Notes under the pieces: model-generated
The model's input: only the letters and a program-made list of their open reading frames with translations
Told to the model about the DNA's origin: nothing
The model's database searches: none
In this document: piece by piece, positions 1-10,796 of the stretch
How positions within the stretch are numbered: the stretch's first letter is position 1
Layout of the letters: each line of letters begins with the position of its first letter
Virus record (IMG/VR): IMGVR_UViG_3300028594_000124
Span: 1 to 10,796 of that record
Direction: 5' to 3' (one strand)
From: a virus
Length of the DNA stretch: 10,796 nucleotides
Translations under genes and position numbers: made by a program

Positions 1-118
1 CACCGGCGCATACGTTGCGCTTGCCGATGCCATCGCCGTGCTCAAAGAACAAGGGGGTCGCTCCACTTTCCCCAATTCTGTGAAACATTGTGAAACATTT
101 GTGAGTGTGTGAAACATT
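1..118. repeat. Left inverted terminal repeat (ITR-L), probable protein-primed replication origin
   Basis: Bases 1-118 equal the reverse complement of 10679-10796; identity stops at base 119 (t versus g). The outer 73 bp hold 46 G/C (63%). The inner 45 bp carry three TGTGAAACA copies (79-87, 89-97, 108-116). Confidence 0.9.
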
Positions 119-158
119 TTGAAAAACATTTGTGAAACTTCGGAAAATTCTGTGAAAT
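79..158 (+). promoter_or_regulatory. Left-end array of TGTGAAACA iteron-like repeats
   Basis: Perfect 9-mers start at 79, 89 and 108. Degenerate copies lie at 131-139 (TGTGAAACT) and 151-159 (TGTGAAATT). Start-to-start spacings are 10, 19, 23 and 20 bp, close to multiples of one helical turn. The array extends past the ITR boundary. Confidence 0.7.
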
Positions 159-214
159 TATTTTAAAAAACATTGTAATTATTGTTAGTTATCTCTGGAA
201 TTATAAATCTATTA

Positions 215-223
215 TGTTATAAT
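215..223 (+). promoter_or_regulatory. Early promoter, extended -10 (TGTTATAAT)
   Basis: TGnTATAAT lies at 215-223, with no good -35 element. The 16-nt core TGTTATAATAGATATA matches 3765-3780 (TGTTATAATAGAGATA) at 15 of 16 positions. It is the only strong promoter-like element upstream of the first gene. Confidence 0.55.
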
Positions 224-320
224 AGATATATAAGGGGGTTGGAAATGTTTAAATATATATCGTTAGAAATCTATCCATCTAACATATCATAAAACAATAT
301 AAGAAAAGGAATGATACAAA

Positions 321-677
321 ATGGGAATTGCAAAATTTAATAAAGGTGAAGTTTTATTTACGAATACTGAAAGATTTGACGAGTTTCTTTCATTAGAAGA
401 ATTGTTTAAACGTGATGGTAAGGGTAAAAAGTACATTGTGTTAGGGGTTTATGATTATACTAGTTCTTATGGACGTGGTGCATTTGCTAAATCAGATGGG
501 TTCAATATTTCATTACCATCACATATGGTAGATACTGTTAAAGATATTAGAAATGATAATGAAAGTGTAGAACAGATTAACAACTCAATCGTATTTTTAG
601 AAATCTACACATACACATTACCTGATAAATACCCTGATAAAACTTTCTATTCTATTAACTTCATTGTTAAAGATTAA
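321..677 (+). CDS. Hypothetical early protein; possible phi29 p5-like ssDNA-binding protein
   Basis: 118-aa ORF and first gene after the left-end promoter, followed by its own terminator. Its size, its position and the C-terminal pattern VFLEIYTYTLPDKYPDKTFYSINFIV loosely recall phi29 p5 (124 aa, ...FKVKVVQGTSSKGNVFFSLQLSL, from memory). The SD (AAAGGA) is weaker and about 10 nt from the ATG. The functional call is weak. Confidence 0.4.
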   Translation: MGIAKFNKGEVLFTNTERFDEFLSLEELFKRDGKGKKYIVLGVYDYTSSYGRGAFAKSDGFNISLPSHMVDTVKDIRNDNESVEQINNSIVFLEIYTYTLPDKYPDKTFYSINFIVKD

Positions 678-690
678 ATACTAATGGATA

Positions 691-724
691 GGTAGGACTG
701 AAAAAGTTCTACCTTTTATTATTT
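691..724 (+). terminator. Rho-independent terminator or attenuator after the first gene
   Basis: The stem GGTAGGAC (691-698) pairs with GTTCTACC (706-713) with one G-U pair and a 7-nt loop. It is followed by TTTTATTATTTT. Confidence 0.6.
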
Positions 725-740
725 TAAAGGGGGGTTAAAA

Positions 741-974
741 ATGAGAATACCAATAGACAGTATAGGTCAATTTTGTAAGATGTACCGAACATACATTCTG
801 AAATTAACACTTGATGAAATGAGTAAATTATCAGGGGTGAAAGTTCCAACTATTTCAAGTTTTGAAAATGGTAGAAGTACCAATGCTAAACACATTGAAA
901 TGTATTATAAACTTTCAACAGATAAACAAAAGATATTTTTCAAAAACAATATTCCATATGGAAAGGGTGAATAA
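741..974 (+). CDS. XRE/Cro-C1 family helix-turn-helix transcriptional regulator
   Basis: 77 aa. LTLDEMSKLSGVKVPTISSFENGRSTN is a classic HTH_XRE signature (helix, turn, recognition helix, then the E-x-G-R pattern). A strong SD (AAAGGGGGG) lies about 5 nt upstream of the ATG. Confidence 0.8.
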   Translation: MRIPIDSIGQFCKMYRTYILKLTLDEMSKLSGVKVPTISSFENGRSTNAKHIEMYYKLSTDKQKIFFKNNIPYGKGE

Positions 975-976
975 TA

Positions 977-1579
977 TTGGCAGGGGTAGAAATTAAAATA
1001 ACTACTGATAAAACGAATATAAAAAAGCTAACAGCAGAAGAACGTAAATTAAGACAGGAAGCGAGTCGATTATCTTCACTAGCGAATAAACGATTGAAAC
1101 GTATGGAACAACAAAATTTAACTGATTCACCTGCTTATAAAAAGTGGGTAGAAGATGGGAAAGCTAAATTTGGGGTACGTGGAAAATCTATGGCACAAGT
1201 ACAGGCAGAAATTGGTAGATTAAACAATTTTATCAATCAGGCAACGTCTACAGTTAGGGGTGCTAAAAACTACTTTAAAAATATAGGTGCTAGTGTCGGT
1301 ATTGTAGAATGGGAAGATATACCTGATTTACAGAATAAACTAAATAACTTTTTTGAAATTACAGGTAAGGTAAAAGAATACTTACATAATTCAAAAGAAA
1401 TTGGTGTAGCGATTGGTTATCAACAGATTTGGAATGCTGTATCAGATTATGTTCAGGAAGTAACTAATGAAGCGATAGATGTAGAATATGCGGTTATGGA
1501 AGTTGCAGCAAAGTTAGTTCCTGCTACAGGGCTTAAACATATGCACGATACATTAGATGATTTTTTAGATAGTTTTTAA
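977..1579 (+). CDS. Candidate terminal protein (TP, replication primer)
   Basis: 200-aa ORF immediately upstream of the protein-primed DNA polymerase, the same order as phi29 gene 3 then gene 2. TTG start with SD AAAGGGTGA 6 nt upstream. Basic helical N-terminus (KKLTAEERKLRQEASRLSSLANKRLKRMEQQ) and acidic C-terminus, as in known TPs. AYKKWVEDGKAKF faintly recalls phi29 TP AQFNKWKEQASSF. The call rests mainly on synteny. Confidence 0.5.
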   Translation: MAGVEIKITTDKTNIKKLTAEERKLRQEASRLSSLANKRLKRMEQQNLTDSPAYKKWVEDGKAKFGVRGKSMAQVQAEIGRLNNFINQATSTVRGAKNYFKNIGASVGIVEWEDIPDLQNKLNNFFEITGKVKEYLHNSKEIGVAIGYQQIWNAVSDYVQEVTNEAIDVEYAVMEVAAKLVPATGLKHMHDTLDDFLDSF

Positions 1580-1614
1580 ATATTCCAACGTGATACATGA
1601 AAGGGGGGTAGCTA

Positions 1615-3717
1615 ATGTTTGCTGATTTAAAATATAAAACGTATCGTAAATATAATTACCATACGAAACAATCTACCGAATATCTAAATATAGAATGTTC
1701 TTTTGATATAGAAACAACTTCTACTTATGTAGATGGTGAAAAGTTTGCTTTCATGTATCTATGGGGCTTTGGAATTGGGAATGATGGAAAACATATATAC
1801 TATGGTAGAACATGGGAAGATTTAATGATATTTCTTAATACCCTATCTAGTGAATTAGGTTTACATAAAAATAGGGTGTTAGTCTGTTACGTTCACAATT
1901 TAGCTTATGAGTTTCAATTCATGAGAAAATATTTTGATTGGGTAGGTGTCTTTTCAGTAGATGATAGAAAACCGTTAAAAGCATTATCCACTTTAGGAAT
2001 AGAATTTCGAGATAGTTATATGCTTTCAGGTTTTAGCTTATCTAATACAGCGAAAAATTTACAAAAACATGAAATTAAAAAATTAGTTGGTGATTTAGAT
2101 TATAGTAAAGTAAGACATCATGAAACAGAAATCACTGAATTAGAATTACAGTATTTAGAAAATGATGTTGTCATTGTGTTAAATTACATTAATGAACAGT
2201 TAGATATTTACGGTAAGATAACTAAAATACCTTTAACGAATACAGGTAGGGTTAGGGAATTTGTGAAAGATAACTGTTACTATTCTAAAGGTAAAAGTAA
2301 ATATAAATCTAGCAAGGGTAAAAGAAACAACTATCGTGAAATTATGGAAAACCTAACTTTAAAAGTAGATGAATATCAGAAATTAAAGATGGCTTTCATG
2401 GGTGGTTTTACACATGCCAATGCTTATTATACAGGTAAGACTTTAGAAAATGTTCATTCAGTCGATTTTACAAGTTCCTATCCTGCTGTTATATTATCCG
2501 AACAGTTTCCAATGGGTAGGGGTTTTAAACCAACTAAAGAAGAAATTTTAAAAAATGGATATGATTATTATCTAAATAATTTTAACTGTTTGATAGGCGC
2601 TGTATTTATAAATTTAGAAAACCAATTTGCACATGATAGTTACTTATCTGAAAGTAAGTGTAGAATTAGGGGTGAAAAATTAATAGATAACGGTAGGGTT
2701 TACAGGGCAGAAATGGTGTCTACCATGATAACAGAAGTTGATTTATGGATAATGAAAAAAGTGTATAGTTACGATAGTTTACACATTACAGATTTAACTG
2801 TTTATCCTAAAACCTATTTACCTAAACCAATTATTGAAAGTGTGTTAGATTTGTATCAGGATAAAACAACCCTGAAAGGTGTAGCAGGTTCAGAAGTTGA
2901 ATATATGTTATCTAAAGGAATGTTAAATTCAGTTTATGGAATGATGGTTACAGATATTGTAAAAGATGAAGTTACTTATGAAGAAGATTGGGGTATTGAA
3001 GAAGTAGACCCTGTAGAAGAAATTAAAAACTACAATGAAAAAGTAAGCAGGTTTTTGTACTATCCATGGGGTGTATGGATAACCGCTTATGCAAGGCGGA
3101 ATTTATGGTTAGGAATATTATCCCTGAAAGATGATTATATTTATTCTGATACCGACAGTATAAAATTTTTAAATTATGAAAAACATGAACCATTTTTCAG
3201 GGAATATAATGAATGGGTAGAAAAGAAACAACTTGCTACTCTTAACCATTATAGCATAGATACTAATTTACTCTATCCAAAAACTATTAAGGGTGATGTT
3301 AAAGTTGCAGGGCTATGGGATTATGAAGGAAATTATTCACGTTTTAAAACATTAGGTGCTAAACGTTATTTAGTAGAAGAAGATGATGAATTACATTTGA
3401 CAGTTGCAGGGCTATCAAAACGTAACGGTATCGAATACATGAAAGAAGTTTCAGGTGATAATTCTAAAGTGTTTAAAATGTTTACTGATGAATTAACAAT
3501 ACCTGCTAACAGAACAGGGAAAAGCACACACACTTATATAGACAGTGAACATGAATTTCCTGTTACTGATTATACAGGTAAGACAGTAACGGTAAATGCT
3601 AAATCAGGGGTTCATTTAGAAGAAGTAGAATATAGTTTAAATATCAATGATTTATATGTAAGGTTCTATGAATTAGCACAACAGGGCTACCTGCTAAAAG
3701 GGGTTATAAAACAATAA
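1615..3717 (+). CDS. Protein-primed family-B DNA polymerase (phi29 gp2-like)
   Basis: 700 aa. Motifs seen: ExoI FDIETT, ExoII HNLAYEFQF, ExoIII YLENDVVIV, YxGG-like FMGGF, motif A DFTSSYP, motif B KGMLNSVYG, motif C YSDTDS and KxY GAKRY. The SD GGGGGG lies 6 nt upstream of the ATG. Confidence 0.95.
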   Translation: MFADLKYKTYRKYNYHTKQSTEYLNIECSFDIETTSTYVDGEKFAFMYLWGFGIGNDGKHIYYGRTWEDLMIFLNTLSSELGLHKNRVLVCYVHNLAYEFQFMRKYFDWVGVFSVDDRKPLKALSTLGIEFRDSYMLSGFSLSNTAKNLQKHEIKKLVGDLDYSKVRHHETEITELELQYLENDVVIVLNYINEQLDIYGKITKIPLTNTGRVREFVKDNCYYSKGKSKYKSSKGKRNNYREIMENLTLKVDEYQKLKMAFMGGFTHANAYYTGKTLENVHSVDFTSSYPAVILSEQFPMGRGFKPTKEEILKNGYDYYLNNFNCLIGAVFINLENQFAHDSYLSESKCRIRGEKLIDNGRVYRAEMVSTMITEVDLWIMKKVYSYDSLHITDLTVYPKTYLPKPIIESVLDLYQDKTTLKGVAGSEVEYMLSKGMLNSVYGMMVTDIVKDEVTYEEDWGIEEVDPVEEIKNYNEKVSRFLYYPWGVWITAYARRNLWLGILSLKDDYIYSDTDSIKFLNYEKHEPFFREYNEWVEKKQLATLNHYSIDTNLLYPKTIKGDVKVAGLWDYEGNYSRFKTLGAKRYLVEEDDELHLTVAGLSKRNGIEYMKEVSGDNSKVFKMFTDELTIPANRTGKSTHTYIDSEHEFPVTDYTGKTVTVNAKSGVHLEEVEYSLNINDLYVRFYELAQQGYLLKGVIKQ

Positions 3718-3725
3718 AAATTCTG

Positions 3726-3762
3726 TGTGAAACAGTATTCCAATGTTTCACATGGGGTTTTT
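3726..3762 (+). terminator. Early-operon terminator whose stem is an inverted TGTGAAACA pair; probable dual-use operator
   Basis: TGTGAAACA (3726-3734) and TGTTTCACA (3744-3752) give a perfect 9-bp stem with a 9-nt loop, followed by TGGGGTTTTTTG. The hairpin starts 9 nt after the polymerase stop codon. Confidence 0.65.
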
Positions 3763-3764
3763 TG

Positions 3765-3773
3765 TGTTATAAT
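3765..3773 (+). promoter_or_regulatory. Late promoter, extended -10 (TGTTATAAT)
   Basis: TGnTATAAT lies at 3765-3773. The 16-nt core is near-identical to the promoter at 215-230. The expected -35 position (about 3745-3751) falls inside the TGTTTCACA arm. Confidence 0.55.
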
Positions 3774-3809
3774 AGAGATAGATAATTATGAATGAAAGGG
3801 GGTTTAATA

Positions 3810-4910
3810 TTGGAAATTTTCAATCGAAACAAGTTCTACACGTTAGATAGAATTTTAAAATTAAATGCTACCTATAATATGATTATTGGTGAACGTTCCA
3901 ATGGTAAAACATATGCCTGTTTGAAACATGGGATAGAAGAATATTTTAAAGATGGTTCACAATTTGCAATTGTTAGAAGATGGCAGGAAGATATTAGGGG
4001 TAAGCGTGCAAGTGAAATCTTTTCAGCTTTAATGGATAATGATGAAATATATAAAATTTCTAAAGGTGAATTTAAAGGTATCTATTATTGGGCAGGTAAA
4101 TATTACCTATGTAATTATAGCGAACAGGGTAAGCCTATCTATAATGAGCAGGACGTGATAGCCTATCCATTTGCTTTATCAGATACAGAACATAATAAAT
4201 CAATCACATATCCAAAAATAAATACAATAATCTTTGATGAGTTCCTAACAAGGCAGGTATATTTACCTGATGAATTTGTGTTATTCATGAATACAATTTC
4301 AACTATAGTAAGACAACGTACAACAGTAAAAATATTTATGTTAGGTAATACGGTAAATAGATACTCACCATATTTCACTGAAATGGGTATTACCAATGTA
4401 GATAGACAGGAACAGGGAACGATTGACGTTTATAAATATGGTAACGGTGAATTAAAAGTAGCTTTAGAATACACTAAATCTACAGGGAAATCTAAAGAGA
4501 ACAATTTCTATTTTGCTTTTGACAACCCTAAATTAGAAATGATAACTACAGGTGCATGGGAATTAGATATTTATCCACATTGCCCTGTGAAGTTTAAACC
4601 TAAAGACATCCTGTTTATTTATTTCATAGAATACAATGACGAATTATTTCAGTGTGAAATAGTAAATAAAGATAACAACCTTTTCACTTTCATTCATAGG
4701 AAAACAACAGAATTACAGAATACAGATACTGATTTAATTTACACTTTTGATTATGTACCGAAAATAAATTATAATAGAAGTATATTAAAACCGAGAAATC
4801 AATTAGAAAACCGAATACGTGAGTTCTTTATGTTTGATAAAGTTTACTATCAGGATAATGAAGTGGGTGATAGCATTAATAATTATCTAACACAATGCAG
4901 GAAAGGATAA
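3810..4910 (+). CDS. DNA encapsidation (packaging) ATPase, phi29 gp16-like
   Basis: Walker A GERSNGKTYA (gp16 GARGIGKSYA), FAIVRRW (gp16 FIYVRRY) and Walker B TIIFDEF (gp16 TIVFDEF). I prefer the TTG at 3810, with SD AAAGGGGG 7 nt upstream, over the track ATG at 3792, which has no SD and lies only about 11 nt from the predicted transcription start. Confidence 0.9.
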   Translation: MEIFNRNKFYTLDRILKLNATYNMIIGERSNGKTYACLKHGIEEYFKDGSQFAIVRRWQEDIRGKRASEIFSALMDNDEIYKISKGEFKGIYYWAGKYYLCNYSEQGKPIYNEQDVIAYPFALSDTEHNKSITYPKINTIIFDEFLTRQVYLPDEFVLFMNTISTIVRQRTTVKIFMLGNTVNRYSPYFTEMGITNVDRQEQGTIDVYKYGNGELKVALEYTKSTGKSKENNFYFAFDNPKLEMITTGAWELDIYPHCPVKFKPKDILFIYFIEYNDELFQCEIVNKDNNLFTFIHRKTTELQNTDTDLIYTFDYVPKINYNRSILKPRNQLENRIREFFMFDKVYYQDNEVGDSINNYLTQCRKG

Positions 4911-4921
4911 GGGGTGAGTGA

Positions 4922-5842
4922 GTGGATAAATTAGATAAACAGAATTTTTATGATTTTCAAAATGGAATTGCATTATATAAACCAACTGATAAACTAAGTA
5001 ACATTAATCATTTAATCAATTCATATCTAAACAAAACTTTAGCAATGTTTCAATACACCAATTTACCTGATACATTACCTGATTTAGAATTAGAAAAGAT
5101 GTTGCAGGTGCAGGGGCAGGTGTTCATAACAAAATACAATGATGATGTTGTTGCTTTGAAAATAGATTTACTTCATGATGATGTAGATGTTTACGGTAAA
5201 GCTAAAGCAGGGAACGTTTATTATCCTGATACTAAAGTATTTAAGAAAGTGAATTTGTCTGATGGGGTTTTGATACAGAATGATTATTTAGGTTTAGGAC
5301 TTTTAGAACTGTTTAAAAAATATGCTTACTTAATTAATGAAAGTGCATTATCTTTAAACATGGCGAATTTCTGGAAACGTACTGAAAAAGTATTTACCGC
5401 AAATGATGACGCTACATCAGAAAGTGTTAAAAACTATTTAGCAAAAACTGAAAGGGGTGAAATTGGGTTAGTTACTAGTAATTTACTTTATGAAAGTATT
5501 AAAGTAAATACACCACAAGCAAATGGTACTAGTTTAGGTGAATTAATAGAATACCACAATTATTTAAAGTCGCAACTGTATGCAGAAATTGGTTTATATA
5601 CCAATGAGAACAGAAAGAAAGAACGACTAATAACAAGTGAAGTAGAAACAGGTTTAAATGCTATCTATCCATTAGTAGATAATATGTTAGATAATCGTGT
5701 GCAGGGAATGGTAAAGGTCAATGAAATGTTTGATTTAGATATTCAAGTTGAATTTATGAGTTCATGGAAAGCGAACAATGAAGATAGTGAAAATATGGAT
5801 CCAAAAATTGAAGATTTAAAAATTTTAGAAGATGATGATTAG
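4922..5842 (+). CDS. Portal / head-tail connector (upper collar) protein, phi29 gp10-like
   Basis: 306 aa (gp10 is 309 aa). FQYTNLPDTLPDLELEKML resembles gp10 FEWENLPPTINPSFLEKSI. NENRKKERLITSEVE resembles gp10 NLEKKERMVTDEVS. GTG start with SD AAGGGGTGAG. Confidence 0.85.
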   Translation: MDKLDKQNFYDFQNGIALYKPTDKLSNINHLINSYLNKTLAMFQYTNLPDTLPDLELEKMLQVQGQVFITKYNDDVVALKIDLLHDDVDVYGKAKAGNVYYPDTKVFKKVNLSDGVLIQNDYLGLGLLELFKKYAYLINESALSLNMANFWKRTEKVFTANDDATSESVKNYLAKTERGEIGLVTSNLLYESIKVNTPQANGTSLGELIEYHNYLKSQLYAEIGLYTNENRKKERLITSEVETGLNAIYPLVDNMLDNRVQGMVKVNEMFDLDIQVEFMSSWKANNEDSENMDPKIEDLKILEDDD

Positions 5843-5852
5843 GGGGTTTTTG

Positions 5853-6083
5853 ATGGAAAGTTCTATTTTAGATGTTGTTAGTAATTTAGGTTTCCCTATA
5901 GCGGTGAGTGTAACATTGTTTTATCAGATGAATAAAACGAATGAAACATACGTGAAATTATTACGTGATTTTCAGGATGTAATAAGTAACAATACACATT
6001 CTATTAAGTTACTAAATGCTACCGTTCATGAATTGAAAAATGATTTAGGTTATAGAGATGTAGATACAGGTGAAAGAAAATGA
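5853..6083 (+). CDS. Small single-pass membrane protein with a YvrJ-like N-terminus; holin candidate
   Basis: 76 aa from the ATG at 5853, with SD AGGGGG 5 nt upstream. ILDVVSNLGFPIAVSVTLFY is a hydrophobic helix carrying the N-x-GFP motif I associate with the Bacillus YvrJ family. It is followed by a polar helical tail. The stop overlaps the next start (ATGA at 6080-6083). Confidence 0.6.
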   Translation: MESSILDVVSNLGFPIAVSVTLFYQMNKTNETYVKLLRDFQDVISNNTHSIKLLNATVHELKNDLGYRDVDTGERK

Positions 6084-6655
6084 AACTAAAAGATTTAGTA
6101 GTTGGTGATTATAATATTTTAGATTACATTTCGTTCTTTGATGATATATCAGACACTAAACCCTATTTTGCAGAATTAACGTTTATGTATGGTGAACGTG
6201 AATTATTAACTAAAGCAGAAGATTTATTTTTATCTAGTGATTTAGGGGGTGTTGGTTTGATGTTTGATTTGAAAAGTCCTGATTGGGAACAGTTGAAAAT
6301 TGTAGCTAAAAGATTAGTAGATGATGGAATGTTAGAAACTACCACCACCAAAACAACTGATAGAACAGATACTGTAGACAGAACAGGTACTAATTCTAGT
6401 GATGTAGCAGATGATGATTTTGTAGTAGCTTATGATGAAACAGTAGACACTAAACAAGCAGGAACAACAAGGTCAGATACTAAAGAAAATATTGAAAATG
6501 TAATCAATGAATTAGCAGGAACAGATACCACTGTTAAAACAGGATATGATAAAAACAGAATGGAATTTATAACGACACTGTTTAAAGAGTATCCTAATTA
6601 TAGGTTAGAAATTTATAAAGATATTGTAAATGGTTTATGTATTCAGGGTTATTAA
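6080..6655 (+). CDS. Acidic T/D-rich virion-module protein; candidate lower collar/adaptor or scaffold
   Basis: 191-aa ORF translationally coupled to the upstream gene, between the portal and capsid genes. A central low-complexity tract (TTTTKTTDRTDTVDRTGTNSSDVADDD...GTTRSDTK...GTDTTVKTG) is present. I recognise no motif, so the function is inferred from position only. Confidence 0.35.
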   Translation: MKLKDLVVGDYNILDYISFFDDISDTKPYFAELTFMYGERELLTKAEDLFLSSDLGGVGLMFDLKSPDWEQLKIVAKRLVDDGMLETTTTKTTDRTDTVDRTGTNSSDVADDDFVVAYDETVDTKQAGTTRSDTKENIENVINELAGTDTTVKTGYDKNRMEFITTLFKEYPNYRLEIYKDIVNGLCIQGY

Positions 6656-6683
6656 AATAAAAAATATAAAGGGGTAGTAAAAT

Positions 6684-7838
6684 ATGAAAGTAGAACAAAT
6701 TCATACAATTTTAAATACAGTTACAAATGAAGTGTTAGGTACAGAAAATTTAGTTAGTGAAGATTTATCCAATATTGTTGATGTTGGTAATGAAATTTTA
6801 AATGCTGAAAAGGTAGATAGTTATGTTAAAAAATTAGTACACCACATTGGGAAAGTAGAATTTTCTAATCGTAAATATAGGGGTAATGCTAAATCAGTAT
6901 TAATGGATAGTTGGGAATATGGTTCAATTTTACAAAAGATTGAAAGTGAATTACCTGAAGCAACTGAAAATGAGTCATGGAATTTAGTAGATGGACAATC
7001 TTATGACCCTAATGTTTTCCATCAACCAAAAGTATCTTCTAAATTTTTTGATAGTAAAGTTACGTTTGAAATTCCTGTATCATTTGCAGAAAAACAAGTA
7101 AAAGGGTCATTCTCAAATGCTAGTCAGATGAACGGTTTCCTAACAATGATTACGAACAACGTTGAAAATTCATTAACGATTAAATTAGATAGTTTAATTA
7201 TGCGAACAATTAATAACTTCATTGGGGCTACATTATTAGATGAAAATTCTAATACTAGTGTAAACTTGCTGAAAATGTATAATGACGCTATGGGTGAAAC
7301 TTTAACAGTTGCAGATGCTTTAACAGATAGTGCGTTTTTACGTTATGCCAACTTCATTATCAATACATACACTGATAGAATGTCACGTATTTCTACACTG
7401 TTTAATAAAGGTGGTAAAGAACGTTTTACGAATAAAGAAAATGCTAATCTAATTCTATTGACTGATTTTGTAAATAGTTCAGATGTGTTCTTACAATCAG
7501 ATGTACGACACAATGAATTAACAGGTGTAGCTAAATTTGATACGGTTCCTTATTGGCAAGGTTCAGGTACAGGGTATTCATTAGATGAAATTTCATCTAT
7601 CAATGTATCTGTAAATGACGGTACAGCGACTTCTAAAACAGTTGAACAATCAGGAATTATCGGAGTACTGTTTGATAGACAAGCACTAGGGGTTACGAAT
7701 TTAGATAAACGTGTTACAACGAATTACAATCCTAAAGCAGAATTTTATACTAACTTCTATAAAGCAGATGGCGGATACTTTAACGACTTTAACCAAAACT
7801 TTGTTGTATTCTACATTGAAGATGATAGTGCTGCTTAA
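6684..7838 (+). CDS. Major capsid protein (HK97-fold, Picovirinae type)
   Basis: 384 aa. It has a strong SD (AAAGGGGTAG) and is followed by a strong terminator, as expected for the most abundant virion protein. GVLFDRQALGV resembles phi29 gp8 AVLVDKDWFMV. There is no Ig-like C-terminal extension. Confidence 0.75.
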   Translation: MKVEQIHTILNTVTNEVLGTENLVSEDLSNIVDVGNEILNAEKVDSYVKKLVHHIGKVEFSNRKYRGNAKSVLMDSWEYGSILQKIESELPEATENESWNLVDGQSYDPNVFHQPKVSSKFFDSKVTFEIPVSFAEKQVKGSFSNASQMNGFLTMITNNVENSLTIKLDSLIMRTINNFIGATLLDENSNTSVNLLKMYNDAMGETLTVADALTDSAFLRYANFIINTYTDRMSRISTLFNKGGKERFTNKENANLILLTDFVNSSDVFLQSDVRHNELTGVAKFDTVPYWQGSGTGYSLDEISSINVSVNDGTATSKTVEQSGIIGVLFDRQALGVTNLDKRVTTNYNPKAEFYTNFYKADGGYFNDFNQNFVVFYIEDDSAA

Positions 7839-7854
7839 TTAAATAACTGAATAG

Positions 7855-7882
7855 GGTGGAATTGACGTTCCACCTTATTTTT
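7855..7882 (+). terminator. Rho-independent terminator or attenuator after the capsid gene
   Basis: The stem GGTGGAA (7855-7861) pairs with TTCCACC (7868-7874) around a 6-nt loop. It is followed by TTATTTTT. Confidence 0.7.
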
Positions 7883-7899
7883 ATATAAGGGGTGAATAC

Positions 7900-8283
7900 A
7901 TGAGTGACAATTTAAAAATATATACGAATAAATCAGACCAAAATATTATCAATAAAGATAAGGAAATAGTATCTACTTTAGAATGTACCTTTAAAGATAA
8001 TATTGATATACTAAATCCTATTCTACTAATTAAAAATTATACAGGTGGAAACTACTGTTACATTTTAGATTTTGAACGGTACTATTTTATAGATGATGTT
8101 AGTTTATTAAAGGGTGGGGTGTATCAGTTGCATTGTTCTGTAGATGTTTTACAGTCATATGCTGATGAGTTAGAAAACAGTGAATATTATTCAAGTGATG
8201 GGGTTTTACATACAGTAGAAAATGAAATCGAATTTACTGAAATATATAATCCTGAAAAATTTATTTTGATTATGGGGGTGTAA
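7900..8283 (+). CDS. Tail knob / distal tail tube protein, N-terminal segment (phi29 gp9 N-terminus-like)
   Basis: 127 aa. NYCYILDFERYYFIDDVSLLKGGVYQLHCSVDVLQSY resembles the phi29 gp9 N-terminal [44 protein letters not shown] is present. The ORF ends at TAA, in frame with the next ORF. Confidence 0.6.
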   Translation: MSDNLKIYTNKSDQNIINKDKEIVSTLECTFKDNIDILNPILLIKNYTGGNYCYILDFERYYFIDDVSLLKGGVYQLHCSVDVLQSYADELENSEYYSSDGVLHTVENEIEFTEIYNPEKFILIMGV

Positions 8284-8286
8284 AAA

Positions 8287-9942
8287 ATGGCAAGTGAATT
8301 ATTACGTATGGTTGAACATGTTGAGTTATGGGGCGACCCTGAAATTGTTAAATTGACAGGTTATTTAACTGAAAGTAAAAAGAATTTATTACTAACTGTT
8401 GAATTAAAAAACCACTATTTCATAGACCCTATAAAATTTACAATGAAACGTGATACAAGGGGTGATTTTAACTATAATCACATTAGTTTTAGTGATTCTA
8501 CACAAGGTGTAATATCTGAAATGATTGACGGTGTAGAAAGAAATACAGGAATTATATCTCTTAATGTTGGGTTAGATACCACCACTACAAAAGTTGAAGT
8601 TATTGTCAGTCCTGATAACATTGTTCAATATGAACCACAAATTGATGGACAATCTTTAATGATTGAAAATTATAATGTTGTAAATGCTTATGTTGATACT
8701 AGTTATATACCGTTTAATTCTAGTGGGGTGATAGTTAGTAATTTCAGTTCTGATGGTGATAACGTTCAAGAAGTTGTGATTGAAGATACTTTACGTGTTA
8801 CAGCAAATGATGGGTATAAATTTGATTTAGATAATTTAGAAGATTATTATTTTGATGTTCAATTTCAACCGTATAATTATAATTTACGTTTGAGTTATGA
8901 TAGTACTGTACCATTCATACGTGTAAATCTTTCAGAATTTAGACCTGCTACAGGTATATCAACTTTTAATTGGATAGAAAAAAGCTCTAGTTATCCACTA
9001 TATCAAAGCGTACCTACTGATGGTACTATGTTCTATACTTATTCTGTAGGTGATACTAAACATTTGTTATTGTTATATGGTGGGTTACGTGAAAATGATT
9101 TACTATTTTTCACTTTCACTAAATCAAAATCAGGTTATGATGATATAGCATTTACTATGAACGGTGAAGAGTGGGTTAGGACAGATTTATTTTCTGCTAG
9201 TCTTTACGATTCTATAACAGATGAACGTCTTGAATTGAGTTTTTTAAATAATCTAAATTTTGTTGCCGTACCATCTACAACTACACCTATAGAAGATACT
9301 TCTAAATATTTATTTAATACTTATTACATTGATAATTCTGATTTGTCTATGTTACGTGAAAATAGTGGGTTAGTGAGTGAAGTGATTATAAATACCTATT
9401 CCTATCCTATAAACTTTTCAGATGATGATTTGGTAGATGTAGATTTTTCAGTAGCGAATATTACACAAAATATTCCTGCTAAACGATTTTTATTTAATAA
9501 TACAGAAGTAGAAATTTTTAAATTTACTATTCCTGATGTTCCTGATGTTTCAGATATACGTATCAGAATACCGTTTAATAATGATGTTACACTACACTAT
9601 GAAGATGTTAGGGGTAAAACAATAACAGGTAGATTTAGTTATGAAGTTTTAACGAATAGTACAACGTTATTTATTAATGATGGGGTTACAGATATTTACA
9701 AAAACATGGTAGGTGTTGGTGTTGTTGTACCATACAGGGCTACAGGTAGATATGATGGGGGTAACGACCCTACAACACGTTTAGCAGTTGATGAACCTAA
9801 GTTATTCATTAAAGGGGTTGGTAAAACGATAAAAGGAAATTACATTCAGGGTACGATTGGTAAAGTAGTTGAAAATATGTTAAATTCAGAACGTGATAAA
9901 TTAAATACATTACTAGAGAATGGGGTGTTTTTCAATGATTGA
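8287..9942 (+). CDS. Tail knob C-terminal segment, probably also the receptor-binding protein
   Basis: 551 aa. The C-terminal NSERDKLNTLLENGVFF resembles the phi29 gp9 C-terminal NNDLQEIRTIFDNGITLW. EIFKFTIPDV...IRIRIPFNNDVTLHYEDVRGKTITGRFSYEV recalls gp9 [23 protein letters not shown]...KIQVRGSLG. It has its own SD (GGGGGTG) 6 nt upstream of the ATG. No other tail or fibre gene is present in the genome. Confidence 0.55.
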   Translation: MASELLRMVEHVELWGDPEIVKLTGYLTESKKNLLLTVELKNHYFIDPIKFTMKRDTRGDFNYNHISFSDSTQGVISEMIDGVERNTGIISLNVGLDTTTTKVEVIVSPDNIVQYEPQIDGQSLMIENYNVVNAYVDTSYIPFNSSGVIVSNFSSDGDNVQEVVIEDTLRVTANDGYKFDLDNLEDYYFDVQFQPYNYNLRLSYDSTVPFIRVNLSEFRPATGISTFNWIEKSSSYPLYQSVPTDGTMFYTYSVGDTKHLLLLYGGLRENDLLFFTFTKSKSGYDDIAFTMNGEEWVRTDLFSASLYDSITDERLELSFLNNLNFVAVPSTTTPIEDTSKYLFNTYYIDNSDLSMLRENSGLVSEVIINTYSYPINFSDDDLVDVDFSVANITQNIPAKRFLFNNTEVEIFKFTIPDVPDVSDIRIRIPFNNDVTLHYEDVRGKTITGRFSYEVLTNSTTLFINDGVTDIYKNMVGVGVVVPYRATGRYDGGNDPTTRLAVDEPKLFIKGVGKTIKGNYIQGTIGKVVENMLNSERDKLNTLLENGVFFND

Positions 9943-10618
9943 TTTATTTATAGCAGGTCATGGTAAAAATTTAAAAACAGGTGGTTTTGATACAGGTGCA
10001 ACAGGTTATATTTCAAAAGGTGAGCATAGATATATGACAGAAGATTTATTCCCTGCCATGAAAAAATATATACCTGATGGTGTTAAACCTATTTTCCATA
10101 CTGAATATAATGTTTATAGTCAGGGAAATATTGTTTCACTTGCTAAGAAGTATGGAAAAGATGTAAGGGTAACAGAATTTCATTTTGACGCAGGCGGTGT
10201 AAACTATTCAAAAGCAGGTGGACACGTTATTATTCAATCAGGGTTAAAACCTGATGAATTAGATTTACGATTAAGAGATGCTATCAAAAATACAACAGGG
10301 TTACACCCTATTCATTCTGATGGTATCAGTAGACGTAACAACTTACTTAATCCACGTTTAGCTATGCAAGGTGGTATTAATTATAGGTTACTAGAATTAG
10401 GAATGAGTACACATAAAGAGAATGCTAACTACATGATTAACAATGTTGATACCATTGCTAAAGAGTTAGTAAAAGCATTTTATTCTACTACTAAATCTAC
10501 ACCATCAACAGATAAATTATACAGGGTACAAGTTGGTGCATTTAAAAAGTTAGATAATGCAAAACAATTACAAAATGAATTGCGTGCTAAAGGTTATGAT
10601 GATTGTTTTATAATCTAA
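9935..10618 (+). CDS. Endolysin: N-acetylmuramoyl-L-alanine amidase (Amidase_3, CwlC-like) with a short C-terminal SPOR-like repeat
   Basis: IAGHGKN..GGFDTGATGY..GEH, FHFDAG and LELGMSTHKENANYM fit the Amidase_3 zinc and catalytic pattern. After a T/S/P linker, the C-terminal YRVQVGAFKKLDNAKQLQNELRAKGYDDCFII fits a SPOR repeat. I prefer the ATG at 9935 (SD GGGGTG 7 nt upstream, an ATGATTGA overlap with the upstream stop) over 9920. Confidence 0.88.
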   Translation: MIDLFIAGHGKNLKTGGFDTGATGYISKGEHRYMTEDLFPAMKKYIPDGVKPIFHTEYNVYSQGNIVSLAKKYGKDVRVTEFHFDAGGVNYSKAGGHVIIQSGLKPDELDLRLRDAIKNTTGLHPIHSDGISRRNNLLNPRLAMQGGINYRLLELGMSTHKENANYMINNVDTIAKELVKAFYSTTKSTPSTDKLYRVQVGAFKKLDNAKQLQNELRAKGYDDCFII

Positions 10619-10629
10619 TAGATATTTGA

Positions 10630-10660
10630 ACGTGGTATAAATATTTATATCACGTTTTTT
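10630..10660 (+). terminator. Rho-independent terminator of the late operon
   Basis: The stem ACGTGGTATA (10630-10639) pairs with TATATCACGT (10646-10655) with one G-U pair and a 6-nt loop. It is followed by TTTTTT (10655-10660) and starts 12 nt after the endolysin stop. Confidence 0.75.
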
Positions 10661-10718
10661 GTTTCACAGACTGCACACAATGTTTCACACACTCACAAAT
10701 GTTTCACAATGTTTCACA
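10660..10718 (-). promoter_or_regulatory. Right-end array of TGTGAAACA iteron-like repeats (read as TGTTTCACA on the plus strand)
   Basis: Perfect copies lie at 10660-10668 (outside the ITR), 10681-10689, 10700-10708 and 10710-10718, with spacings of 21, 19 and 10 bp. The copy outside the ITR mirrors the left-end degenerate copy at 131-139 to within 2 bp. Confidence 0.7.
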
Positions 10719-10796
10719 GAATTGGGGAAAGTGGAGCGACCCCCTTGTTCTTTGAGCACGGCGATGGCATCGGCAAGCGCAACGTATGCGCCGGTG
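10679..10796. repeat. Right inverted terminal repeat (ITR-R), probable protein-primed replication origin
   Basis: Exact reverse complement of 1-118. Carries TGTTTCACA at 10681-10689, 10700-10708 and 10710-10718. Confidence 0.9.

Follow-up and report, generated by a model that had tools for sequence, protein, structure and literature searches.

The sequence analyzed here, record IMGVR_UViG_3300028594_000124 (10,796 nt; hereafter the window, meaning this entire stretch), comes from a Joint Genome Institute (JGI) metagenomic assembly and is best read as the essentially complete genome of an uncultured linear double-stranded DNA (dsDNA) phage of the Astrithrvirus/Phanie clade, the outer ends of which are chimeric. 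We assign this reading a probability of roughly 0.8. With 54 nt of foreign DNA removed from each end and ~17 nt of terminus added, the true genome length is about 10.72 kb. The window is a new genus-level lineage of phi29-related mini-podophages, common to four related genomes designated L100, L103, L104, and L144, and represents neither a new size record nor a demonstrably minimal autonomous gene set.

Genome organization and probably chimeric outer ends

Twelve plus-strand open reading frames (ORFs) of 77–700 amino acids (g1–g12) tile the window, which has a GC content of 30.5%. Minus-strand ORFs do not exceed 77 amino acids, and all but one (287–436, overlapping the start of g1) lie inside plus-strand genes; no tRNA genes were found in the window. 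Searches against Pfam and PHROG gave matches to a protein-primed family-B DNA polymerase (PolB), a gp16-type ATPase, a gp10-type connector, the Phi29_MCP family of major capsid proteins (MCPs), a holin-like protein, a helix-turn-helix (HTH) protein, and an amidase with a SPOR domain. These matches agree with an initial annotation of the window as a phi29-type, protein-primed linear genome carrying inverted terminal repeats (ITRs) and a pared-down gene set. The 12 co-directional genes that it described correspond to the plus-strand ORFs, and its two promoter-defined blocks are substantiated by the promoter core TGTTATAATAGA, which occurs exactly twice, each time upstream of a gene block. Profile and Rfam searches likewise upheld its failure to recognize p6, p1, p17, a head fiber, gp12, gp13, or a packaging RNA (pRNA).

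The inverted repeat arms (1–121 and 10676–10796) are 99% identical, 118 nt of them exactly. The window had been described as starting and ending precisely with a perfect 118-bp ITR; the exact 118-nt repeat is indeed present, but the ends as written are not the physical termini. The first ~60–75 nt have a GC content of ~61–63%, far from the genome-wide value. By degenerate-pattern search and nucleotide identity, nt 1–54 (plus strand) were attributed to a fragment of Corynebacterium rph, the RNase PH gene, reading as an 18-amino acid peptide in frame 2; mirroring the left end, nt 10743–10796 (minus strand) hold a second copy, the reverse complement of nt 1–54. When the 14-amino acid peptide of nt 2–43 was written as a wobble-degenerate pattern, 37 GTDB genomes were matched, 35 of which are Corynebacterium/Corynebacteriaceae. 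Over nt 1–54, identity to C. belfantii is 50/54 (92.6%) with all four differences synonymous, other species reach 85–93%, and the ORF around the matched Corynebacterium sequence is RNase PH-like. Outside the Corynebacteriaceae, the pattern matched L120 (Staphylococcus chromogenes M79.2 contig08) and L118 (a Sulfuriflexus metagenome-assembled genome), for which contaminated assemblies and a truly conserved peptide are both conceivable explanations. The GC-rich tip had no match in the phage collection, E. coli genomes, IMG/VR, JGI metagenomes, or GTDB (exact 24-mer). A known adapter or vector was also considered as its source and rejected, no recognized adapter matching and plasmids giving chance-level matches only.

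Inward of the rph fragment, the left arm (55–118) carries the conserved box TTTCCCCAATTC at nt 67–78 and can be aligned to ITR sequence in L104, L144, and the IMG/VR contigs L001–L003; the right arm (10679–10742) is its mirror. In the closest relatives this box, followed by short tandem repeats, lies ~30 nt from the ends. Alignment with the ITRs of L104 and L144 starts at window nt ~55 (GGTCGCTCCACTTTCCCC), and L144, an independent SPAdes contig, has phage sequence without rph at the homologous point. Concordant ends reading GGGATTA... were seen in L001, L002 (both ends), and L003. The first 25 nt of L104 (ENA ERZ27280539, MEGAHIT contig k141_317234) are adapter (GTTCAGACGTGTGCTCTTCCGATCT), presumably Illumina TruSeq, fused directly to GGGATTAAAGATG at the terminus GGGATTAAAG; the other end of this contig begins at the same GGG, and trimming leaves a genome of 10,581 bp that has a 97-bp ITR. 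The adapter, though a contaminant, maps the physical terminus by its junction in L104. Ends of the relatives, which read GGGATTAAAG, lie ~17 nt further out than window nt ~55, and about 17 nt of true terminus, probably GGGATTAAAGATGAAGA-like, would thus be missing from the window. We therefore read each arm as ~54 nt of Corynebacterium DNA joined to ~64 nt of genuine ITR. For the complete genome, a genuine ITR of ~80 bp is strongly supported by the sequence comparison.

The rph fragment is most likely a chimeric extension of a collapsed ITR node in the assembly. Since the ITR collapses to one node of the assembly graph, an outer attachment is written onto both contig ends, and their identity is not independent evidence. 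That the rph termini are biologically real, ~17 nt having been replaced by ~54 nt of captured bacterial DNA that then spread by ITR homogenization, is unlikely. The fragment does stand at both ends, contiguous with genuine ITR, but this is expected by construction from a collapsed repeat. GC-rich tips recur in the clade (62% GC over 60 nt in L056 and 50% in Phanie), and the Shigella isolate L017 begins with CACACCGG rather than GGG; on the other side, four genomes of the same clade end in GGGATTA, including the adapter-mapped one that is ~86–89% similar to the window, and L144 lacks rph at the corresponding position. Nor is a high-GC actinobacterium a plausible host for a phage that has 30% GC and an amidase of staphylococcal type. 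The sliding-back step of known protein-primed replicons uses terminal reiteration, and CACC offers none.

Independent assemblies bear on the inner boundary and on completeness. Logan contigs (k = 31) from SRR7705359, 99.7% identical to the window, break at both ends 30 nt (k − 1) inside the ITR boundary, at nt 89 and at nt 10708, where contig L019 stops; this supports the inner boundary at 118/119 and does not address the outer part. The same breaks, falling exactly where a k − 1 offset from the ITR boundary places them, speak against the window being a piece of, or misassembled from, a larger genome, such as a picovirus of ~17–19 kb, with the ITR as an assembly artifact. Although the window ends are demonstrably not clean, we regard that explanation as very improbable: in at least five other samples, independent assemblies share the gene order, the 10.3–10.9 kb span, and ITR-type bounding sequences, isolates of the clade measure 11.1–11.9 kb, and dozens of g8 and g11 homologues lie on contigs that top out at ~11.0 kb.

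Several points weigh against the overall assignment. The chimera was deduced from comparison with relatives and not from read coverage; the candidate terminal protein (TP), g3, is assigned by position and clade conservation; the structural model of g8 is of low confidence, and that of g11 has no PDB match; and the host assignment below draws on two horizontally mobile gene types. For metagenomic surveys, the window illustrates that calling a genome complete from its ITR can conceal chimeric termini, here a 54-nt bacterial fragment doubled onto both ends.

Contig ends vary elsewhere in the clade. L056 (ERZ773147 NODE_3426, 12,063 bp), in which the structural module is inverted onto the minus strand, has a 35-nt GC-rich ITR beginning with AAAGCCCC, and one end runs 29 nt past the repeat; this is another case of contig ends that differ from true termini. 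The terminal repeat is 18 nt in the RefSeq record of astrithr (L014), the ends of which may be incompletely assembled, 171 bp in Phanie (L015), which has a GC-rich tip and, subterminally, a TTCCCCAT box, and 97–433 nt in metagenomic relatives.

Clade placement and genome size

Intergenomic similarity to the window, obtained by a VIRIDIC-style calculation, was 86–88% for L100, L103, and L104, 71% for L105, 57% for L002, 16–24% for cultured isolates, and 0.8% for phi29. For L104, 86% by this calculation corresponds to ~89% nucleotide identity over the aligned 95%. On sequence similarity, L100, L103, and L104 are placed in the same genus as the window and in different species; genomes of this genus measure 10.3–10.9 kb and have the same gene order. 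A search with the MCP gave 23 matches, and identities to the proteins of the isolates compared are 49–57% for the MCP, 48–55% for PolB, 56–58% for the ATPase, 35–37% for the portal, and 37–48% for the putative TP. With 19.5% similarity to Astrithrvirus astrithr, the window falls outside the ICTV genus Astrithrvirus, for which at least 70% is required. It shares the synteny, the 10–12 kb size, and the MCP grouping of the Astrithrvirus-like clade (cluster 23; Evseev et al. 2024, PMC11476376) and lacks the CHAP-type endolysin and right-end reverse-strand genes of that cluster. PolB, ITRs, a gp16-type ATPase, a gp10-type connector, and a phi29-type MCP place it in the broad phi29-type group, whereas the pRNA gene of Salasmaviridae was not found by Rfam and structure scans.

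The closest cultured phages are those of the genus Astrithrvirus and its allies, namely Salmonella phages astrithr, Astrid, and assan, Pectobacterium phage DU_PP_III, Shigella phage vB_SHGBLB0004, Enterobacter phage Entb_47, and Vibrio phage K58 g2. Like the window, they are linear genomes of 10.4–11.9 kb, ITRs being present in the three complete records of isolates that were checked, and the order HTH-TP-PolB-ATPase-portal-small collar-MCP-knob N-knob C-endolysin is common to all. Unlike them, the window is free of small reverse-strand genes at its right end, carries an SSB-like (single-stranded DNA-binding protein-like) gene, g1, at the left end, has its holin-like gene after rather than before the portal gene, and encodes an endolysin of the amidase plus SPOR type instead of the CHAP type; g8 and g11 are kin to the proteins of these phages only at the level of profiles and structures. 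Phi29 shares with the window a protein-primed PolB, the gp16-type ATPase, the gp10-type connector, the Phi29_MCP fold family, and ITRs, but is 19.3 kb long, is transcribed divergently in its early and late parts, has a 6-bp ITR, and carries pRNA, p6, p1, p17, a head fiber, gp12, and gp13. Staphylococcal picoviruses (Rountreeviridae, ~17–18 kb; e.g., SLPW, GRCS, and SA46-CTH4) are also protein-primed and phi29-type and are the only cultured phages with a detectable g1 homologue; they are ~7 kb larger than the window, and no staphylococcal phage was among the 23 MCP matches. In these picoviruses the tail knob is in one piece, and receptor-binding tail fibers and a tail lysin are also present.

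Relatives are abundant in metagenomes, with more than 553 for PolB, 112 homologues of g8, and 57 of g11. The suggestion that the window sits at or below the known size limit for tailed dsDNA phages did not stand, as described isolates measure 10.4–11.9 kb and ITR-bounded relatives occur at 9,427 bp (L002), 10,020 bp (L006), and 10,581 bp (L104), up to ~12.3 kb. Astrithrvirus-like isolates have been described since 2020 (PMC7762592); among isolated tailed phages astrithr (11.6 kb) was called the smallest, its head being predicted as T=3, and metagenomic contigs of 5–11.6 kb a "twilight zone" (PMC7762592; bioRxiv 10.1101/2025.06.18.659913). The shortest of these relatives, L002 (IMGVR_UViG_3300010327_000287), has a 102-bp ITR, 24% GC, and 10 genes, including a 406-amino acid g11, and lacks the holin-like gene and the endolysin; few tailed-phage genomes that encode a capsid may be smaller. 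The 10,390-bp record of Vibrio phage K58 g2 (L016, OZ195715.1) starts at the terminase gene, ends inside PolB, and has no ITR, as if a linear genome with ITRs had been written in permuted or circularized form; its length is better not read as a genome size. Protein-primed mini-phages of 9–12 kb mark the lower size bound of tailed phages and bear on minimal HK97-type (T=3) capsids and on the biology of satellites and helpers.

Tail genes, probable host, and possible helper dependence

The genes g8, g10, and g11 were assigned to the tail. For g8 (6080–6655, plus strand; 191 amino acids), a lower-collar (tail tube) candidate, hhalign gave a match of 87.7% (E = 3e-6) to the astrithr gp07 family, which has been called a small lower collar (PMC11476376) and has the same position between portal and MCP. 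The AlphaFold2 (AF2) model of g8 (pLDDT 42) shows helices, one β-hairpin of ~20 residues, and further helices and was too low in confidence for a fold search; a profile search against PDB sequences gave no match. The product of g10 (7900–8283, plus strand; 127 amino acids) would be the N-terminal part of a split tail knob. Its family profile matched residues 60–149 of the 583-amino acid "major tail protein" 4eo2/4ep0 (E = 4.8e-4), which we take to be the knob of streptococcal phage C1, and weakly 8egs_Y. This protein is 25–34% identical to Phanie gp9 and astrithr gp09 (31% to Phanie gp9), and a weak hhalign link (30%) to residues 91–132 of phi29 gp9 was the only one found when the g1, g8, g10, and g11 families were compared with 18 phi29 proteins.

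The large tail-knob protein, g11 (8287–9942, plus strand; 551 amino acids), was assigned by hhalign and Foldseek. It is built of a variable N-terminal module of ~125 amino acids, β-sandwich domains, and a conserved C-terminal knob part, residues 341–550 of which align with the astrithr/Phanie gp10 family (hhalign 95.7%, E = 9e-9). When its AF2 model (pLDDT 69) was compared with BFVD, Foldseek returned a 568-amino acid protein of Salmonella phage Astrid with a probability of 1.0 (E = 9e-12). No Pfam, PHROG, or PDB sequence match and no tblastn match in cultured phages was obtained for g11, and the fold search against the PDB gave loose β-sandwich matches only, none significant. Most of the 57 homologues are 420–430 amino acids long and lack the N-terminal module. 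A tail knob divided between the putative products of g10 and g11 is strongly supported by these comparisons, and a split knob has been described for this clade (PMC11476376, section 2.6). No homologue of a fiber, appendage, receptor-binding protein, tail lysin, head fiber, p6, p1, or p17 was found in the window by Pfam, PHROG, hhalign, or tblastn. The virion would thus have a stub tail made of the g8 collar and the g10/g11 knob, with neither fibers nor a tail lysin.

The most probable host, judged from the matches of g1 and of the endolysin gene g12, the GC content, and the presence of Corynebacterium DNA in the same assembly, is a Staphylococcaceae-like Gram-positive coccus of low GC. The Corynebacterium DNA suggests a sample of skin, nasal, dairy, or livestock type. 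With the window, the clade gains an uncultured lineage of genus level, and the accessory genes of this lineage point to Staphylococcus-like Gram-positive cocci, whereas the hosts of the cultured members are Gram-negative.

This tail architecture bears on whether the phage can infect alone. According to section 2.6 of PMC11476376, citing Pourcel et al., Phanie, the one clade member to have been dissected experimentally, is non-infectious unless attached to a helper myophage's contractile tail, and the same account suggests that its relatives may likewise use helper tails; the primary source (Pourcel et al. 2024, J Virol 98:e00667-24) is followed here as relayed by PMC11476376 and PMC13587820. 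Phanie belongs to the same syntenic clade as the window, has a split knob with a small subunit homologous to g10, and lacks fiber and spike genes. It differs in its larger gp10 (854 amino acids, against 551 for g11), a different endolysin, reverse-strand genes at the right end, and a Gram-negative host; in addition, its helper dependence is, on those accounts, experimental, whereas the window is known from its genes alone. The window itself encodes a capsid and a stub tail, comprising a collar and a Phanie gp9/gp10-like split knob, and has no fiber, spike, or tail-lysin genes. The ITR-bounded relatives L002, L006, and L048 (10,973 bp) have no recognizable endolysin, L002 also lacking the holin-like gene, and the Salmonella Astrithrvirus-type phages came from crude lysates or a multi-phage cocktail. 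Together with the missing receptor-binding and wall-degrading tail proteins, these observations are consistent with helper dependence.

Other observations point away from it. Unlike those three relatives, the window keeps both a holin-like gene and an endolysin; the variable N-terminal module of g11 could be a receptor-binding domain; and a 2025 preprint calls Astrid "non-satellite" (bioRxiv 10.1101/2025.06.18.659913). Given this lysis cassette and the swappable g11 module, we put helper-tail dependence at about even odds and hold an autonomous podovirus to be a serious possibility, somewhat short of even. Under autonomy, the 12 genes would be a minimal self-sufficient set, g11 would bind the receptor, and g12 would serve as both endolysin and entry lysin. 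Genes for replication, packaging, head, portal, collar, knob, holin-like protein, and endolysin are all present, the g11 module comes and goes among close relatives, as receptor-binding modules often do, and g12, which overlaps the 3′ end of g11, could be translationally coupled to that tail gene. However, Phanie shares this tail architecture, has six Ig-like domains in addition, and in the accounts cited is nonetheless non-infectious without a helper tail, and in the accessible literature propagation from a purified single-phage stock is reported for no member of the clade. Homologues of a tail fiber, an appendage, or a tail lysin were not detected in the window, and sister genomes do without any recognizable endolysin. 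The description of the window as a very small viable podovirus gene set is accordingly questionable.

Phages that ride on helper tails could pass unnoticed in phage preparations, and an Astrithrvirus-type genome was present in a nine-phage Salmonella cocktail. The further idea that the window, L100, L103, L104, L144, and the more distant 9.4-kb L002 group form a Gram-positive, tail-borrowing branch of the Phanie-type mini-phages is tentative, and we think it rather improbable as things stand. If true, capsid-encoding, tail-stealing satellites would extend to Gram-positive cocci, with L002 among the smallest capsid-encoding tailed-phage genomes.

Replication, packaging, and lysis genes and their signals

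The early block comprises g1–g4. The SSB-like early protein g1 (321–677, plus strand; 118 amino acids) was identified by tblastn, which returned 94 records, all from Staphylococcus picoviruses, at 34–36% identity over 86–95% of the protein (E = 1e-9); the best-covering matches are annotated as single-stranded DNA-binding protein. For g1, searches of Pfam, PHROG, and the PDB gave no match. Homologues lie at a genome end throughout the clade, in L036 at the opposite end and on the opposite strand. A kinship of g1 with the right-end genes of astrithr was considered and dropped, hhalign giving no relation. The HTH regulator g2 (741–974, plus strand; 77 amino acids), conserved in position across the clade, matched Pfam HTH_3 (E = 4.5e-5) and a PHROG transcriptional regulator.

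The TP candidate g3 (977–1579, plus strand; 200 amino acids) lies immediately upstream of PolB. It is clade-specific, always adjoins PolB, and is 37–50% identical to the same-position protein of Astrithrvirus-like isolates (13 phage records), which has been called TP (PMC11476376). Its invariant residues include a TST motif (T90, S91) and Y135; similarity to phi29 p3 was not detectable. The protein-primed PolB, g4 (1615–3717, plus strand; 700 amino acids), matched Pfam DNA_pol_B_2 (PF03175; E = 2.4e-15) and PHROG 1907 (E = 1e-84) and is 48–56% identical to the enzymes of clade isolates and up to 86% to those of metagenomic relatives. Replication may proceed by TP-primed strand displacement from both ends, carried out by PolB, the candidate TP g3, and the SSB-like g1.

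Both blocks are headed by the same promoter core. The early copy of TGTTATAATAGA, an extended −10 element (TGnTATAAT), lies upstream of g1 (215–226, plus strand), and the late copy (3765–3776, plus strand) directly follows the PolB terminator and heads the packaging, structural, and lysis block; in L100, L103, L104, and L144 the core is kept as TGGTATAAT. A sequence scan listed a terminator-like hairpin with a T-run after g1 (690–714, plus strand), a possible attenuator. The PolB terminator (3726–3752, plus strand), which abuts the late promoter, is a hairpin formed by an inverted TGTGAAAC pair followed by TTTTTT, and another terminator hairpin closes the late block (10628–10657, plus strand). 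After the capsid gene, a hairpin GGTGGAA/TTCCACC with a T-run (7855–7874, plus strand) was noted by eye and was not listed by the scan. A 15-codon mini-ORF (245–292) behind a strong ribosome-binding site was rejected, its ATG not being conserved in L100, L103, and L104.

The 8-mer repeat TGTGAAAC is found 10 times in the window, against 0.64 expected, and none of 200 shuffles reached 10. Four copies (at 79, 89, 108, and 131) occupy 79–138 on the plus strand at the left end, partly past the ITR, and four mirror-oriented copies occupy 10661–10718 on the minus strand at the right end; both sets point inward, the inverted pair in the PolB terminator makes up the remainder, and no copy lies elsewhere. 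As RNA, region 79–138 is less structured than shuffled sequence. All clade members examined, compared at the left ends of L001–L003, L007, L036, and L048, carry subterminal short direct repeats of their own, for example TGTGAAAC, GTAACATATTC, TTTGACACAA, or a 27-nt unit (L036). We infer that the TGTGAAAC arrays are candidate sites for a phage DNA-binding protein at the replication origin or early promoter. Such a protein, possibly g2, might bind the terminal arrays as well as the copies at the early/late junction and in this way couple the organization of the origins with the switch from early to late transcription.

The packaging genes follow the late promoter. The DNA packaging ATPase g5 (3792–4910, plus strand; 372 amino acids) matched Pfam Podovirus_Gp16 (PF05894; E = 3e-20) and PHROG 2150 (E = 3e-34); its start codon is uncertain by a few codons, and from residue ~13 it is 56–74% identical to relatives. 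The portal or upper collar connector g6 (4922–5842, plus strand; 306 amino acids) matched Pfam Phage_connector (PF05352; E = 7e-10) and PHROG 2038 (E = 2e-33). The gap of 11 nt between these genes in the window (4910–4922) is occupied in L100 (4800–4994), L103, L104, and L144 by an extra 64-amino acid DUF3310 gene. Differences from the 99.7%-identical SRR7705359 strain (L018) occur only at 5740–5835, within the last ~35 portal codons, and include a 9-nt indel; the portal gene is hypervariable at strain level where its end overlaps the start of g7.

The pRNA search gave no Rfam match at E ≤ 1 in the window and no stable or conserved structure in the left leader or at either end, with leader z-scores of +0.7 to +2.8. 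Non-coding DNA exceeds 75 nt only at 119–320, a stretch that holds the early promoter and an unstructured leader. As far as sequence and structure scans can detect, a pRNA appears to be absent, although a divergent one could escape them. The MCP, g9 (6684–7838, plus strand; 384 amino acids), is of the phi29 type with the HK97 fold (Pfam Phi29_MCP, PF25622; E = 2e-51) and is 49.6–56.8% identical to the MCPs of the 10.4–11.9 kb isolates. A capsid smaller than T=4, as initially proposed from the DNA length, is a reasonable expectation, and a published model gives T=3 for a genome of ~11.8 kb (PMC7762592). DNA would be packaged by the gp16-type ATPase through the gp10-type portal, with no detectable pRNA, into a small and probably T=3 head.

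The holin-like small membrane protein g7 (5832–6083, plus strand; 83 amino acids) matched PHROG 4898, a holin family (E = 5e-7), gave a weak YvrJ match, and resembles an ORF adjoining the lysozyme gene of Eggerthella phage LE1-1. Its gene follows the portal gene in the genus of the window and lies between ATPase and portal elsewhere in the clade. Homologues of g7 are kept in L006 (~4911) and L048 (~4907), both without a recognizable endolysin, and the protein may for that reason have another role, speculatively that of a replication membrane anchor like phi29 p1/p16.7.

The endolysin g12 (9920–10618, plus strand; 232 amino acids), which overlaps the 3′ end of g11, is an N-acetylmuramoyl-L-alanine amidase with a C-terminal SPOR domain (Pfam SPOR, E = 2e-9; PHROG 489 endolysin, E = 5e-20), and its orthologues in L105 and L144 match Amidase_3. 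By tblastn, 305 phage records were matched, 256 of them Staphylococcus phages, and the amidase domain is similar to its counterparts in phages of Staphylococcus, Mammaliicoccus, and Streptococcus. Kinship with the F16/CHAP endolysin family of the isolates was considered and not borne out by hhalign. The best cultured-phage match to the amidase (47.7% identity) was to Stenotrophomonas phages vB_SmeS_BUCT702 and BUCT704 (H34/H35), for which a Gram-negative host is recorded, whereas almost all remaining matches are to phages of Gram-positive cocci; this match may reflect horizontal transfer or host misassignment.

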